DNA from: Candidatus Latescibacterota bacterium | GTDB taxonomy: Bacteria > Latescibacterota > UBA2968 | Length of the DNA: 64,000 nt | Reading direction: 5' to 3' | Assembly: GCA_965207885.1 (NCBI GenBank) | Contig: OZ242311.1 | Location: forward strand, 3,712,001 to 3,776,000 | Part shown: positions 42,557 through 50,796 of the stretch, one piece after another | Position numbering within the stretch: the stretch's first letter is position 1 | Layout: each line of letters begins with the position of its first letter | Position numbers and translations under genes: made by a program | The notes under the pieces: generated by a model | Database searches by the model: none | Seen by the model: only the letters and a program-made list of their open reading frames with translations | What the model was told of the DNA's origin: nothing

Positions 42557-43552
42557 CTAATGCTCTCCCTCTTCGTATCGAATGCGCGGATCGAGCCACA
42601 ACAACAAAATGTCTGAAATGAGCGTACCGACAAGCGTCAACAGGCTCAACATCATCACCATACTGCCCGCCAGATACATATCCTGATTCATAAGCGCGCG
42701 CAATAACAGCGGTCCCGTCGTCGGCAACCCCAACACCACCGACGTAATCGTCGCCCCAGACACAATACCCGGCAAAACCCATCCCACAGTACTGACGAGC
42801 GGATTGAGCGCCACACGCACCGGATACCGCATCAGCAACACCCAGTAGCGCACGCCTTTGGCGCGGGCAGTCATCACGTATTGTTTCCGCAATTCATCCA
42901 GCAAATTGCCCCGCATCACCCGTATCAATCCCGCCGTACCCGACGTGCCAATCACAATCACAGGGATCCACAAATGCCAGAGCAAATCGAGAAATTTGCC
43001 AAAGGACCACGCCGCACTCTGATACTCCGGTGAAAACAGACCGCCTGCACTCACCCCAAACACGGAATACCCGATGTACATAAAAATGAGCGCGAGCAAA
43101 AAATTGGGCGTTGCAAGCCCGATAAAGCCCAAAAACGTAAAACAATAATCCGGCAGTGAATACTGCTTCACAGCCGAATAAATCCCAACCGGAATCGCCA
43201 GTGCCCACGTCACCAGTAGCGTCACAATCGAAATAATAGACGTCAGCAAAATGCGTTCGCCAATCAGCTCTGTCACGGGGCGATTCCACTCAAACGACAT
43301 CCCCAAATCACCCTGCACCATGCCGGCCAGCCACCGCCAGTATTGCACCATAAAGGGCTGATCGAGATTGTACCGCGCCCGCAGTGCCGCAGCCTGCGCC
43401 TCATCCACCGTCTCCCCCGTCTCACCCAGCGCAGCAATATACGACGTGAGATAATCCCCCGGTGGAAGCTGGATAATTGAAAACGAAATAAATGAGATGA
43501 TTACCATCGTGGGAATCATCCAGAGTAAGCGTTTGACGATGAGGACGAGCAT
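42557..43552 (-). CDS. ABC permease (OppB/DppB-like)
   Basis: QLPPGD, GDLGMSF, TARAKG, LDPRIRY. Confidence 0.94.
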   Translation of the reverse strand: MLVLIVKRLLWMIPTMVIISFISFSIIQLPPGDYLTSYIAALGETGETVDEAQAAALRARYNLDQPFMVQYWRWLAGMVQGDLGMSFEWNRPVTELIGERILLTSIISIVTLLVTWALAIPVGIYSAVKQYSLPDYCFTFLGFIGLATPNFLLALIFMYIGYSVFGVSAGGLFSPEYQSAAWSFGKFLDLLWHLWIPVIVIGTSGTAGLIRVMRGNLLDELRKQYVMTARAKGVRYWVLLMRYPVRVALNPLVSTVGWVLPGIVSGATITSVVLGLPTTGPLLLRALMNQDMYLAGSMVMMLSLLTLVGTLISDILLLWLDPRIRYEEGEH

Positions 43553-43585
43553 ATAAAAATTTCCTGGGAGGTGAAAAAAACTATC

Positions 43586-43612
43586 CGCAGATGACGCAGA
43601 TGACGCAGATGA
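43586..43612. repeat. Tandem repeat (CGCAGATGA) x3 plus a degenerate fourth unit
   Basis: Read directly. Confidence 0.9.
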
Positions 43613-43635
43613 GTGGAGATAAAAATATTTTAAGT

Positions 43636-44214
43636 TCAGCCATTATGTTCCTCAGACCCTTCTTTGGTCCGTTGCAATAATTCAGACAAATTTAGAGCGT
43701 TTGCCCAGTGCTTCAGGTAATCCCAATCTAACCTGTCCCCCTGTACTTTTAAGATACCCGATACATCCCGTAATTGCCGATCTGAAACTTCGCCACCTTT
43801 TCGAAACCAGATCAATTTTTGCAGTACAATATCCTCTGGCGTTGCCACGATCAATTGCGTGTCAGCAATGGTCTGCGGCCTTCGACGACGCATTTCTTCG
43901 CGGTCAATCGCATCAGAACCAGGTACAAAAATATCTACCTTAATCATTGTTTCGAGATGGATAACATTGAAGGAACTGTGCTGAGAGACAGCGCGAATAA
44001 CGTCTTCTTCTTCGATGTAAAATGCGTTTTGGGTATTTGCAATAAGAGCTTGAATATGGTGTTTCTTCAGTTCTGCAACCATGTCGATATCCTGTGTGGC
44101 GCGAGGCTCTCCGTAGATTGAACTGGCAATTGATCCTCCCACCAGATATGGAATATCCAGATTTTCAAAAATTTCAGCCATTTGCAGGGCGACGCAAAGG
44201 GGTTCAGAAATCAC
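43636..44214 (-). CDS. Nucleotidyltransferase-fold protein (TA toxin-like)
   Basis: YLVGGSIAS..YGEPRATQDIDMV (GS...DxD), KVDIF, ATPEDIVLQKL..R..DRQ.RD, LD.DYL..WA. Confidence 0.8.
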   Translation of the reverse strand: MISEPLCVALQMAEIFENLDIPYLVGGSIASSIYGEPRATQDIDMVAELKKHHIQALIANTQNAFYIEEEDVIRAVSQHSSFNVIHLETMIKVDIFVPGSDAIDREEMRRRRPQTIADTQLIVATPEDIVLQKLIWFRKGGEVSDRQLRDVSGILKVQGDRLDWDYLKHWANALNLSELLQRTKEGSEEHNG

Positions 44215-44215
44215 G

Positions 44216-44482
44216 TCAATAGCCCTCTTTGTATGGGTCCCATCCGAATGCTTTAATCATGGTCTGTCGGGGAAGCCGCAATGCGCCGAGACGAAGGCGA
44301 ATTTCTCGCTTATCTGCCTCGGGATACCTGCTGCGAATGCCCGCAACTGCAAGGTCTGTACACGCCTGAGAGAGTTGGGATATCTTCTCGGCTTTTTCGT
44401 GTGGTGTCATTCTCCGATACGCTTCAATGAGCAGGCGTTCTACCCTGAGATTCGTGTCCCGCGATTGTGTTTTATAAGCCAT
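44216..44482 (-). CDS. Small helical partner protein (putative antitoxin)
   Basis: 88 aa, DT...YRRMTP.EK...GIR.RYP...EIR.RL; stop lies 1 nt before the NTase start; GGAG RBS. Confidence 0.7.
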   Translation of the reverse strand: MAYKTQSRDTNLRVERLLIEAYRRMTPHEKAEKISQLSQACTDLAVAGIRSRYPEADKREIRLRLGALRLPRQTMIKAFGWDPYKEGY

Positions 44483-44592
44483 ACGACTCTCCAATTTGAA
44501 CAATTACCTGTTCGTCTATGAACTGGCCTGTGGATGGTGTACAACGAGCCGCTTTTCAGGCTTGTTCACCGGCCAGTTGTACACCGCTCCGT

Positions 44593-47452: not shown

Positions 47453-47659
47453 TTAATCAGAATCCAATTGCAATTCTGTTCGTATTTCAGAGTATGCCCG
47501 AAAACCCGTCGCCGTTTCAACCGCCCGATCCAGATCTAAAGCGTCTTCCAAATCCTCAAGCCGTTGCATCAAAGCGCGATAATCTTTGATTGATAGCAGG
47601 ACTGCGGTCTTCCGCCCCTTTTCATCCACGACATATTTTGGTTTGATATTGAGCATCAT
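47453..47659 (-). CDS. Small Phd/YefM- or RelB-like antitoxin
   Basis: KYVVDEKGRKTAVLLSIKDY..L...LEDLED pattern typical of type II antitoxins. Confidence 0.7.
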   Translation of the reverse strand: MMLNIKPKYVVDEKGRKTAVLLSIKDYRALMQRLEDLEDALDLDRAVETATGFRAYSEIRTELQLDSD

Positions 47660-48078
47660 TGTTCAACCGTTTTGAGCACAGTTATCCCCATCATCGCAAA
47701 ATGATCGTCAAAAGCATAGGTCTCAGAAATTTTATGCTTCTGACAAACCGCGAAACTGGTGCAATCTGTAAATGATAACTTTGCAGAATCGTATTGCCGA
47801 AAAAGCCGCTTGGCTTCTTGAAACAGGGTCTTATCGATTTCTGTGACGGTTAAACCATCTATTTTTTCTGCGCGTTCAATAAAGTCGAGAAACTGCACCG
47901 CTACTGAGTGGCTCACGTCATATCGAAGTCGGGTTATAGTTTCATCAAGCACATAATCCGTCGTTAAAAATCGCGCTCTTTGCCGTTTTAAGTCTGCGTA
48001 AATCGTTACAGCGTCGGTGTGATTCTGATCTCTTTGACTGGAAAGGGCAATCCAGGCACCGCTATCGACAAAAATCAT
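47656..48078 (-). CDS. vapC: PIN-domain ribonuclease toxin (VapC family)
   Basis: IFVDSGAW, TTDYVLDET, SFTDCTSF, FDDHF acidic tetrad. Confidence 0.92.
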   Translation of the reverse strand: MIFVDSGAWIALSSQRDQNHTDAVTIYADLKRQRARFLTTDYVLDETITRLRYDVSHSVAVQFLDFIERAEKIDGLTVTEIDKTLFQEAKRLFRQYDSAKLSFTDCTSFAVCQKHKISETYAFDDHFAMMGITVLKTVEQ

Positions 48079-49862
48079 GGTTTTGACCGCAATTCATAGA
48101 TGATTTCATCGTGATTGGCAGACCCATCAGTTCGGTCAGATTTTGCAAATCCAACCATCTCATCGAGAATCGCGTATCCTTCTTCTATTTTATTTTTTTC
48201 TATGATTTCAGGATTAATTGGGCTACTTCGCACAAGAAAGATAAAGTAATCCAGAACATCTAATGCCTGCCAGATAATCCCGGTAAACACATCGCGCAAA
48301 TGCTGACTTTCAACACCGAAGTCCTTAGCAATTTTTCGATAGTTGCGACCTTTGCGATGTGCGGCACTACTGGAACGCAAACTCTGGAGTTTCCGCAAAA
48401 AGGCGATGCGCTCGGCAGCATCTTCAACATCATGGGCACTAAGCACAGCTTCCAGACGTGCAATGCTACCTTTAAGTTTTGCTTTTTGATCTTTAGAAAT
48501 GAGCGTTTTTAGGCGCCTCTCGTTTAGGGAATCAATGAGTATCTTTGTGAGACTCAAAACCAACGCATCAAAATCGCTTTGCTCATCAGTGGCTGGAATC
48601 CTCAAGCCTTGGAAATGGTATTCGTCACCAGTGCCCAGCGGCAACAACAACTGCCAACCCAGATATTCTTGACAGGCATCTTGCAACTCATGATAACGTT
48701 TCTTAAACAAGTGCTCTGGCCGGTCTGATTCCGTAGCCTCTCCTTTGATTCCACAATTAAAAAAAGCCTCGCTCACACCGCCTTTGGGAGGGATATTGTG
48801 TGCCCGCCAATGTAGTTGCTCTTTGTAAGGCAATCTTTCTCCAAGATGTCCTAAAAACGCACAAACTTTGTCATCATGGTCTTTGTCAATCCACATGTGC
48901 CATAAGCTACCACAGCGCAGACTCCAAGCATCTACTTCGTACTTACTGGGCTGTTGGTAGTATTTGTCTAAAACCTGTTTGTCAAAATGCACAGGGGTTA
49001 GAAAATGAGGCGCATTAGGATTTGCACCAAAATAATTTGCCAGAACATCCGGGTCAGATGTATGGATAATTTCATCTCCGTTCTCATCAACATCAATGAT
49101 AAATTCCACATGCTTTTTTTGGGGTTCCTCGGCAAATCCCCATAACCCACTCTTGGATTTCGGTAGGGGATTAATAAGCCGCTTTCCATCTAATCTGCTA
49201 AAAGATTTATATCTACCTAAACTCCTATCACCATAGCCATGGCACCAACGCATAAAACTATTCTGTTGATGTGCTTCTCCCCTTTCAAGTCCAAGTTCTT
49301 GTAGATCATATTCCGAGTTTTCTATGCAATCAAATTGAATTGATAAATACATCTCTTTAATTGCCAAGAACTGACGAATCTCCCTGAGCCTTATCTTGAC
49401 GCAGTCTGGCTCCACAACCGCCACAGTGTATTCATTCCCGTCATCATCAATCTTGATGTATTTATCCGTCTTTCCGTCGTGATATAGATTGTGAAAAAGG
49501 CGAAACTCCTCAGATATTTCCATATAGGCATCATATAAACCAGAGAATTCGCGCCCCAAAACCAAAGGTTCCACTCTATTTGTTGTATCTCCATACCGGA
49601 GATATTCGACTCTCTCTTCTCCGCCTTCATAAGACACAGATGCATCAGGCATACCACCACCCCAACGGAGGTCCCAACTCGGAGAAGAAAATACTTGATC
49701 AATCCCATCCAATGGAATTAAAGCACAATAAATGCCGTAATTGTGGGACTCTCGGTGATCAGATAGATACACGGTGACCATCTCAGTCATTTTTAGATCG
49801 CGTTGCAACCATTCCAGCATCCTGGTTTGCGATAGCCGTTCTCGGTCTAAATCAATGCTCAT
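48075..49862 (-). CDS. Uncharacterised ~595-aa protein with a C-terminal HEPN-like motif and VapB-like tail
   Basis: ATG 49862 six nt after AGGAGG; LQSLRSSSAAHRKG in a helical domain; tail LDEMVGFAKSDRTDGSANHDEIIYE; ATGA overlap with the PIN gene. Confidence 0.75.
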   Translation of the reverse strand: MSIDLDRERLSQTRMLEWLQRDLKMTEMVTVYLSDHRESHNYGIYCALIPLDGIDQVFSSPSWDLRWGGGMPDASVSYEGGEERVEYLRYGDTTNRVEPLVLGREFSGLYDAYMEISEEFRLFHNLYHDGKTDKYIKIDDDGNEYTVAVVEPDCVKIRLREIRQFLAIKEMYLSIQFDCIENSEYDLQELGLERGEAHQQNSFMRWCHGYGDRSLGRYKSFSRLDGKRLINPLPKSKSGLWGFAEEPQKKHVEFIIDVDENGDEIIHTSDPDVLANYFGANPNAPHFLTPVHFDKQVLDKYYQQPSKYEVDAWSLRCGSLWHMWIDKDHDDKVCAFLGHLGERLPYKEQLHWRAHNIPPKGGVSEAFFNCGIKGEATESDRPEHLFKKRYHELQDACQEYLGWQLLLPLGTGDEYHFQGLRIPATDEQSDFDALVLSLTKILIDSLNERRLKTLISKDQKAKLKGSIARLEAVLSAHDVEDAAERIAFLRKLQSLRSSSAAHRKGRNYRKIAKDFGVESQHLRDVFTGIIWQALDVLDYFIFLVRSSPINPEIIEKNKIEEGYAILDEMVGFAKSDRTDGSANHDEIIYELRSKP

Positions 49863-49903
49863 CACCATCCTCCTTCTGCTATTTTGATTCCTGATCAAAC
49901 AAA

Positions 49904-49931
49904 TGTATAGCACAAAAACCACGTTTGTCAA
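49904..49931 (-). promoter_or_regulatory. Sigma-70 promoter of the islet
   Basis: TTGACA-N16-TATACA with extended -10 TGn. Confidence 0.6.
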
Positions 49932-49932
49932 C

Positions 49933-50796
49933 TTAATCCCCTGATCTAATTCTCTCTCTCACCTCATAAGCCCCTGCATCATCTCGTCTCAATCGTCCCC
50001 AGGCAACATCCGGATCGTGCGGCCACACCATAATCCAGTTCTCGGAAACTGCCCTCTCCATAAACTCTTGCTTAACCAGATAGGTCTGCCGCGGATACAG
50101 ATCATACGCCATCACATAAATCGGCTTCAGGTGATGCGTCGTGGGAATCAAATCCCCCACAAAACAGAACGTATCCTCGCCCGTATGCACCAGCACAGAT
50201 TGATGCCTGCGTGTATGCCCTGGCGTAACTATGACCTCGACAAAAGAACAAATACGCTCATCCCCATCCAGCAGCGTGAGCACAGGTGACAACGGCCTCA
50301 TCACCTCGTCGTATCGGTACCCATTCACCGTCTGTCTATCGGCATTCTCAGCATCGTCCCATTCCCCCTTTTGCACATAATAAGTCGCATTTGGAAAAGC
50401 GGGCACATATTCACCACCCTTTTGCACCGTACATCCCCCGGCATGATCCTGGTGCAAATGCGACAAGACAACCCGCGTAATCTCCTCGGGCGCAATCCGC
50501 AACGCCTCCAGAGACGCCAAAAGCCCATCCGACTCATCAAGCGCGTAAATCTCTCGCAGCTTCTCCGTCACCTTGCCTCCAAACCCCGTCTCAATCAGCA
50601 CAACCTCCCCCTGCCCTCTCACAAGCAAACAATTCATCGTCAACCCAATGCGATTGCGCTCATCGGGCGGATAACACTTCTCCCACAGCGGACGGGGTAC
50701 AACCCCAAACATCGCGCCGCCATCCATCCTCACACACCCGGCAGATAAAATCCACACATCGCAACCACCACTTTGCTTATAATCTACAATCGCCAT
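49933..50796 (-). CDS. MBL-fold metallo-hydrolase (YtnP-like)
   Basis: DGGAMFGVVP, SHLHQDHAGG, TPGHT..HQ, GDLIP, YDLYP, HDP. Confidence 0.9.
   Translation of the reverse strand: MAIVDYKQSGGCDVWILSAGCVRMDGGAMFGVVPRPLWEKCYPPDERNRIGLTMNCLLVRGQGEVVLIETGFGGKVTEKLREIYALDESDGLLASLEALRIAPEEITRVVLSHLHQDHAGGCTVQKGGEYVPAFPNATYYVQKGEWDDAENADRQTVNGYRYDEVMRPLSPVLTLLDGDERICSFVEVIVTPGHTRRHQSVLVHTGEDTFCFVGDLIPTTHHLKPIYVMAYDLYPRQTYLVKQEFMERAVSENWIMVWPHDPDVAWGRLRRDDAGAYEVRERIRSGD

Follow-up and report, generated by a model that had tools for sequence, protein, structure and literature searches.

Toxin-antitoxin (TA) modules stabilise genomic islands and integrons. The concepts closest to the locus described here are, as far as the available portions of the sources present them, those of modular antitoxins and fused TA proteins (PMC10440598, PMC11980606), of genes embedded in restriction-modification (R-M) systems (bioRxiv 10.1101/2024.01.29.577857), and of sensors that are not of the STAND type (many-domain ATPases of signal transduction), such as Upx (PMC13601566); among the nearest known systems are also the HEPN toxins of the HepT/MntA type (SO_3166, 5yep; 6m6u; 7ae2) and other HEPN ribonucleases (RNases). 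The locus lies in a 64,000-nucleotide (nt) stretch (hereafter the window) of a Candidatus Latescibacterota bacterium (assembly GCA_965207885.1, contig OZ242311.1, forward-strand positions 3,712,001 to 3,776,000), and comprises genes for a 595-amino-acid (aa) protein of defence type, a PIN nuclease of the VapC kind and a 68-aa protein. Structure modelling and comparison of related loci make it probable, in our view, that the locus is a type II VapBC pair in which the antitoxin is the C-terminal tail of the large protein, a segment that would bind and neutralise VapC. In the literature searched we found neither the large protein's core family described nor any large defence protein that ends in a VapB-type tail, with the proviso that supplementary tables could list the family.

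A preliminary description of the locus, made from its nucleotide sequence, had reported three translationally coupled genes with two 4-nt overlaps, and both junctions do read as ATGA ('...AAA CCA TGA' over 'ATG ATT', and 'GAA CAA TGA' over 'ATG ATG'; coordinates are collected in Table 1). The ATG at 49862 is most likely the start of the big gene, giving a protein of 595 aa whose C-terminus reads ...LDEMVGFAKSDRTDGSANHDEIIYELRSKP in translation. It had also been stated that no standalone vapB lies 5' of the PIN gene, and this is the case: the big gene runs into the PIN start, and because the two overlap there is no room for a separate vapB.

Tails of the form G...D.S..HD..lY had been named in the same description as typical of VapB antitoxins, and the related loci bear this out. 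The motif [DE].S..HD..[ILV]Y occurs three times in 7.9 million six-frame residues of the source genome, and all three occurrences are the C-termini of open reading frames (ORFs) directly 5' of the genome's three PIN genes of this subfamily. We searched for the PIN gene in 168 genomes of the phylum, 53 of which gave a match, and read the upstream ORF at 32 PIN loci, 30 from this search together with the two other PIN copies of the source genome. Such an ORF terminates in G..(T/S)D.S..HD..(I/L/V)Y, or in something very similar, at 29 of the 32 loci, with HD-x2-(I/L/V)-Y in common. The N-terminal partners of these 29 tails are diverse, namely nine full-length cores (the protein without its tail), two N-terminal core fragments, one DUF2806 protein, three Type ISP proteins, one frameshifted HicB-like protein and 13 small proteins of 74-88 aa. 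One of the three Type ISP-tail proteins was confirmed in Pfam (Type_ISP_C, E 1e-100); of six small tail proteins scanned there, two matched RHH_1 (one above the cut-off) and one weakly matched PhdYeFM, while two had no family and the last had a chance-level match to DUF6335 (E 0.04). The three PIN loci that lack the motif comprise one with an insertion sequence (IS), one at a contig end and one other.

In a region-limited protein search, UPF0150/HicB-like proteins (130 aa), proteins of 73 aa and a DUF2806 protein of 326 aa proved to carry near-identical tails. A Type ISP enzyme of 1066 aa carries the tail as well; a tail search among proteins longer than 1042 aa gave 12 candidates with none at E<=1, and was too insensitive, because this 1066-aa Type ISP-plus-tail protein exists. 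The suggestion that the locus arose by in-frame insertion of a defence gene into vapB did not hold up, since the same tail-plus-PIN module sits on other N-terminal partners.

At the locus with the IS (L147, G085:C1:1813500-1821500), a 337-aa transposase-like ORF at approximately 858-1868 stands between the big gene and vapC; the PIN gene is open, and the tail has lost its last ~9 residues (...NHDEVT) and lies ~1 kb further upstream of PIN. In the source genome itself, two near-identical pairs of a small antitoxin gene and a PIN gene (L081 and L082, G000:C1:84218-86194 and 6165626-6167602) each adjoin a 379-aa ORF that ends, by eye, in a Cys-rich TnpB-like motif, and this vapBC pair apparently moves together with an element of the IS type.

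We then counted loci in a scan of one genome per species, in which 80 loci were kept of 172 relatives. Homologues of the large protein fall into two lengths, ~594 aa and ~552 aa, the short form stopping just past the helical domain; homologues ending near ...LDYF had been proposed as something to look for, and the tail-less ones do terminate right after ...LDYF..VRSGRI. The tail is present at 44 of the 80 loci, and 41 of these 44 have a PIN gene no more than 200 nt downstream, its start mostly at a 4-nt overlap with the long-form gene, as against none of the 36 tail-less loci. The recurrence of tail plus PIN across genomes is thus confirmed, and the association is inflated by the kinship of the loci. 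No separate antitoxin is found at 37 of the 41 PIN loci, which supports the tail as the antitoxin of VapC. In a tree of the core region (MAFFT alignment and FastTree, midpoint-rooted), the tail-bearing Latescibacterota form a clade (support 1.0) that lies within the short forms (0.89). We read the architecture as a gene of ~550 codons that existed beforehand and acquired a tail-plus-PIN module at its 3' end.

The 140-aa product of the second gene had been called an intact PIN nuclease, and as a sequence it is one: it belongs to the PIN family of Pfam (E 8.3e-11; 43 bits, cut-off 23.6), and D5, E46, D105 and D124 are invariant in 35 aligned sequences. The locus therefore has a PIN protein with four acidic residues, a putative antitoxin directly upstream and co-translated with it, and in that antitoxin a C-terminal region related to toxin-binding ones. 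An N-terminal RHH, AbrB, Phd or HTH domain was not found in Pfam, NCBIfam or the AlphaFold2 model, and because no DNA-binding domain was found the 595-aa protein is not a canonical VapB.

The AlphaFold2 monomer model of the large protein has a predicted local distance difference test score (pLDDT) of 90.0 and a predicted template-modelling score of 0.82, with residues 551-595 at pLDDT 49-58, as would be expected of a segment that folds on binding. Modelling of the tail with VapC had been suggested at the outset, and the resulting complex of PIN with residues 540-595 supports binding: the interface score ipSAE was 0.69 (0.70, 0.69 and 0.69 in individual runs) against 0.00 for the best of three controls, a mark that 58 of 80 solved complexes attained, as did 2 of 110 mismatched pairs. 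Contacts agreed between runs to at least 91%, the partner had a pLDDT of 57-58, and the confident predicted contacts are those of tail residues 556-575.

Natural deletion derivatives point in the same direction as the model. Two genomes encode core N-terminal fragments of 293 and 276 aa, with differing breakpoints, that continue in frame into the tail with PIN next; in three genomes Type ISP proteins, elsewhere encoded just 5' of the core gene, are fused straight to the tail; and a sponge-metagenome DNA contig (run X5) joins 48199 to 49884, that is, the exact tail start to the region 5' of the big gene, which we take as a naturally occurring form of the locus in which the core is missing or exchanged and the tail has a different N-terminal partner or none. 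Deletions that keep the tail are the ones expected to survive if loss of the tail with VapC retained is lethal. The presence of tail and PIN on fragments without the HEPN-like domain argues, moreover, that neutralisation does not need that domain or the core.

A mechanism consistent with these arrangements would begin with the joining, in this lineage, of a ~43-residue VapB-type toxin-binding peptide to the C-terminus of the core protein. The tail would bind and neutralise the VapC made from the translationally coupled downstream gene, so that the big protein would itself be the antitoxin, and if the big gene were removed, truncated or shut off while VapC persisted, the RNase would be released. 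On this mechanism the cell is probably unable to dispense with the big gene, or to silence it, unless the toxin is freed. Release on loss would make the defence gene an 'addicted' one, and a shut-off brought about by phage could be punished in the same way.

The same components might instead form a guard, or two-effector abortive-infection circuit, in which the N-terminal domain senses a phage protein, the putative HEPN-like RNase of the same chain is activated and VapC is freed from the tail, with binding, oligomerisation or proteolysis of the big protein as the trigger; the fusion would then have been selected for immune signalling and not for stabilisation of the gene. The sensor-like N-terminal domain and the long-term stability of the fused form speak for this proposal. 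We nevertheless consider it unlikely, given that tail plus PIN appears to work as one module behind unrelated N-termini as well as behind core fragments devoid of the HEPN-like domain, that we found no trigger, conformational switch or protease site, and that the likeness in fold to Avs3 is confined to the end of that chain, residues 1849-2076, to which a role as 'C-terminal sensor' is assigned by position alone. The modularity of the tail and the deletion derivatives together favour addiction at the level of the gene over a guard circuit.

Tail columns N557, G571, D579, S581, H584 and I588 are invariant in 36 long forms (identity down to 52%). This invariance, the retention of the tail in frame by independent deletions, the lack of the third gene at 37 of the 41 PIN loci and the invariant catalytic residues of PIN make it highly improbable that the tail is a decaying remnant of no present function, with VapC kept harmless by the 68-aa protein, by low expression or by loss of activity, even if two loci with a tail and no PIN, some PIN matches with stop codons, and the genome in which an IS separates the big gene from PIN and cuts the last residues of the tail could be seen in that light.

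Against a tail that serves as VapC's antitoxin and thereby holds the big gene in place there are several points to weigh. Three of the 44 tail loci are exceptions to the pairing, as L029 and L053 have a tail and no PIN and L025 ends 143 nt past the gene, and at three loci of the phylum search (L091, L093 and L096) the PIN matches contain stop codons. In the core tree one short form is placed inside the Poribacteria clade and the tail state requires 3 changes; hence more than one gain, loss or exchange of the module has occurred. The most conserved motif of the tail, D-G-S-x-N-H-D-x-x-I-Y (579-589), lies outside the confident contacts of the complex model and is not explained by it, and the model may have passed through likeness to already solved VapBC complexes and not through real binding. 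The autoregulation typical of VapB goes unexplained, as the big protein has no recognisable DNA-binding domain, and post-segregational killing needs a labile antitoxin, which a well-folded protein of 595 aa need not be. Finally, RNA-library contigs (90-99% likeness) cover portions of all three genes and one of 236 nt spans the junction of the big gene and PIN, but they are weak evidence for transcription or an operon, because DNA can occur in such libraries and contigs are not transcripts.

The third gene had been proposed as a second antitoxin of the system. Its 68-aa product matches the RelB-like family PF18506 (E 7.9e-8, 32.5 bits against a cut-off of 27) and a Phd-like family (E 4.6e-6), and the gene stands 3' of PIN at four of the 41 PIN loci, all of them close relatives. 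Relatives of the gene occur in 33 of the 168 genomes of the phylum, and copies that are 72-79% identical to it have a gene for a ParE_toxin domain protein (E 2.5e-11) downstream. On this distribution and these ParE-linked relatives we rejected the 68-aa protein as the cognate antitoxin of VapC; it is probably an orphan antitoxin of the ParE type, situated on the margin of a variable site and outside the mechanism. Within the window no toxin gene lies 3' of it, the next gene being a Zn_dep_PLPC-like ORF, and four ParE-like ORFs are found elsewhere in the source genome. Of the earlier interpretation, then, the VapB character of the tail and the recurrence of tail with PIN stand, the role of the third gene and the insertion into vapB fall away, and the likeness to ApeA and RloC found no support in PADLOC.

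In congeneric genomes the same site, 5' of the Zn_dep_PLPC-like gene, holds other cassettes beside the Phd-like gene. One consists of a DUF2806-tail gene, PIN and the Phd-like gene; another, which lacks PIN, encodes a Type ISP protein whose tail is truncated; in a third, with a DUF2806-tail gene, PIN is deleted except for its first five codons, which now run into the Phd-like gene as a fusion. At the chromosomal site of the window, locus L144 (G089:C1:394500-399500) encodes at 1471-2463 a 330-aa DUF2806 protein with the tail and a weak match to Abi_alpha (E 0.0024, below the cut-off), with an 805-aa HEAT-like ORF upstream of it and PIN and the Phd-like gene downstream.

The core is a widespread, unannotated family of ~550 aa with a sensor-like N-terminal domain, a conserved middle domain and a HEPN-like C-terminal domain of putative RNase activity. 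The large protein had been held not assignable to a named family, and Pfam, PADLOC, NCBIfam and PHROGs indeed gave no match to the 595-aa protein; a search of the ESM Atlas returned unnamed 'hypothetical protein' clusters only. Of 8000 candidates scored in a word-indexed search, 1447 proteins matched at E<=1e-3, and among the 120 matches listed there was no Pfam domain and every name given was 'hypothetical protein'. When representatives clustered at 50% identity were searched exhaustively with HMMER, 1952 proteins matched at E<=1e-3, 1433 of them at 1e-10 and 728 at 1e-30; the usual length is ~545 aa. Homologues of the core are present in the cultured strains Shewanella insulae, Allochromatium humboldtianum, Zobellella iuensis and Laspinema palackyanum.

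Conservation in 60 sequences, down to 32% identity, is strongest in the middle domain, where Y301, D326, N356 and S364 are invariant, C317, W321, N327, D339, E348 and Q349 are conserved at >=90%, and H329, D331 and C334 are kept among closer relatives; the domain may provide an additional active site or a site for a metal. Fold searches, which barely covered this part (residues 235-365), matched nothing to it. Foldseek gave nothing at E<=1e-3 for the whole model or the C-terminal domain against PDB, or for the whole model against the viral BFVD, and a profile of the C-terminal domain gave chance-level matches to PDB sequences, the best at E 0.1.

The R-SSSAA-H motif of the helical domain was rightly located in the preliminary description: LRSSSAAHRKG is present in the translation, and counting from the start codon places R496-H502 at 48357-48377. 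The motif has the R-x4-6-H form expected of HEPN proteins (R496-x5-H502), and conservation of its R and H, which had been put forward as decisive, is high, as R496, S497, H502, R503, K504 and G505 are invariant in an alignment of 20 sequences, and across the 60 sequences no change is seen at H502 and conservation stays at >=90% for R496, R503, K504 and G505. No curated HEPN sequence model in Pfam, NCBIfam or PADLOC matches the 595-aa protein, and an NTPase or ATPase family is absent from it in Pfam and PADLOC scans. There is a minor though appreciable chance that the core is not an RNase at all, the R-x5-H and the helical domain serving instead in binding or regulation, for example as an R-M accessory or specificity factor, with VapC as the sole nuclease. 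Quite unlikely, in our estimate, is the more elaborate proposal that the core is a non-STAND sensor of phage proteins, in which a fold like the 'C-terminal sensor' of the Avs type, possibly for the large terminase, is wired to a HEPN-like RNase, and which in sponge-associated lineages has become a guard that also leashes VapC, so that sensing, cleavage or phage-driven loss would fire both RNases.

Type I R-M genes are the commonest neighbours of the core family, and the majority of neighbours are not defence-related. The 36 short-form loci have 69 immediate neighbours, in which Methylase_S was the commonest family (7) and HsdR occurred twice, and the one short-form locus that was fully checked reads HsdM-HsdS-gene-HsdR. 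Upstream of the long-form gene there is often a gene resembling a Type ISP methyltransferase (at 12 loci) or one for an AAA_15 ATPase (at 10 loci), these neighbour groups being BLAST clusters with a Pfam check on one member per cluster. By record labels, the tail-bearing loci come from metagenome-assembled genomes of Latescibacterota, Poribacteria, Caldilineaceae and Nitrospinota. The window stretch itself occurs mostly in runs labelled as sponge metagenomes; 11 runs hold at least half of the sampled words, and the runs holding any of the stretch derive from 11 studies.

Two neighbourhoods were noted in passing. At L026 (1984-3932) and 8-9 more Poribacteria loci, a gene for an AAA_15/AAA_21 ATPase (~454-487 aa) and then a ~165-aa gene without a Pfam family sit just 5' of the long-form gene, and may be a separate two-gene defence system. 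At L029 (6316-9809), which has the tail without PIN, genes that by eye are DndC-like (with a PAPS-reductase-type motif) and DndD/SMC-like ATPase genes lie downstream, and the neighbourhood would be of the phosphorothioation type if these readings hold.

In the window the locus stands out in base composition, with a GC content of 0.40-0.46 over 47500-50000 against 0.51-0.55 in the flanks, and has an MBL-fold-like ORF on one side and the Zn_dep_PLPC-like ORF on the other. A promoter and terminator scan was at chance level (6 promoter-like sites where 5.4 +/- 2.5 are expected); one promoter-like site, with 10 of 12 matches, lies 5' of the big gene at 49931-49902. Elsewhere in the window a second GC-poor patch (0.44 at 43500-43999) contains, at 43636-44503, a pair of minus-strand ORFs (95 aa and 192 aa) with one base between them; the 192-aa ORF starts, by eye, like a nucleotidyltransferase of the AbiEii/MNT kind, and the pair may be another TA module.

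Table 1. Features of the locus, in window coordinates
Feature	Coordinates	Strand	Remarks
Gene for 595-aa protein (stop codon included)	48075..49862	minus	ORF 48075..49931; start ATG 49862
GGAGG ribosome-binding site	49869..49873	minus	6 nt 5' of ATG 49862; read directly
Residues 1-234, beta-rich N-terminal domain, fold resembling the C-terminal end of SeAvs3	49161..49862	minus	
Residues 235-365, middle domain, most conserved stretch of the family; C317, W321, D326, N327, D339, E348, N356, S364	48768..49160	minus	
Residues 380-548, helical HEPN-like domain	48219..48725	minus	
R496-SSSAA-H502, candidate R-x5-H HEPN motif, RKG next	48357..48377	minus	conserved in alignments
Residues 553-595, VapB-type tail, predicted PIN-binding, IEEGYAILDEMVGFAKSDRTDGSANHDEIIYELRSKP	48078..48206	minus	absent from short forms; predicted contacts 556-575
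vapC, 140-aa PIN nuclease (predicted)	47656..48078	minus	start shares ATGA with stop of big gene
68-aa RelB/Phd-like antitoxin gene	47453..47659	minus	ATGA overlap with vapC stop

If the proposed function of the tail is correct, a type II antitoxin has been reduced to a portable peptide of ~40 residues that can be grafted onto large defence proteins. Its carriers, namely the core family, the Type ISP enzyme and the DUF2806 protein, would each be individually 'addicted', a simple way in which costly immune genes could persist in genomes, and the deletion products that keep the tail would be direct genomic traces of selection by addiction. The core family, large and without a curated model (1952 representatives at E<=1e-3), is a candidate anti-phage system in its own right, because of its type I R-M neighbours, its Avs3-like beta domain and its conserved R-x5-H. 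The locus would, on the same condition, offer a concrete system for asking whether TA modules fused to sensors act as guards.

With VapBC systems the locus shares a PIN protein with the acidic quartet, a putative antitoxin immediately upstream with a 4-nt overlap, and the C-terminal peptide motif of the small VapB-type partners; it differs in that the antitoxin part consists of ~43 residues at the end of a multidomain protein of 595 aa that has no RHH, AbrB, Phd or HTH domain. As with the TA modules that stabilise islands and integrons, loss of the region would free a stable toxin, but here the antitoxin is in frame with a cargo gene and the addiction would act on that single gene. A likeness to the anti-phage RNases ApeA and RloC had been suggested and found no support, no PADLOC model matching the 595-aa protein, and the ABC-type ATPase of PrrC and RloC was not found in it. 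In their placement between hsdS and hsdR the short forms resemble the genes embedded in type I R-M systems, such as PrrC, as these appear in the available part of bioRxiv 10.1101/2024.01.29.577857; most core loci, however, are not beside R-M genes, and the window copy stands between genes of housekeeping type. Compared with Avs2, Avs3 and Upx, as the accessible part of PMC13601566 presents them, the protein described here has no STAND ATPase and no tetratricopeptide repeats, its sensor-like domain is N-terminal, and its putative effector is HEPN-like and not PD-(D/E)xK. CapRel and other TA fusions, so far as the available text of PMC11980606 covers them, likewise hold an antitoxin element within a larger polypeptide of defence type; there toxin and antitoxin are in one chain, whereas here the toxin is separate, in trans, and the carrier of the tail has a putative effector of its own.

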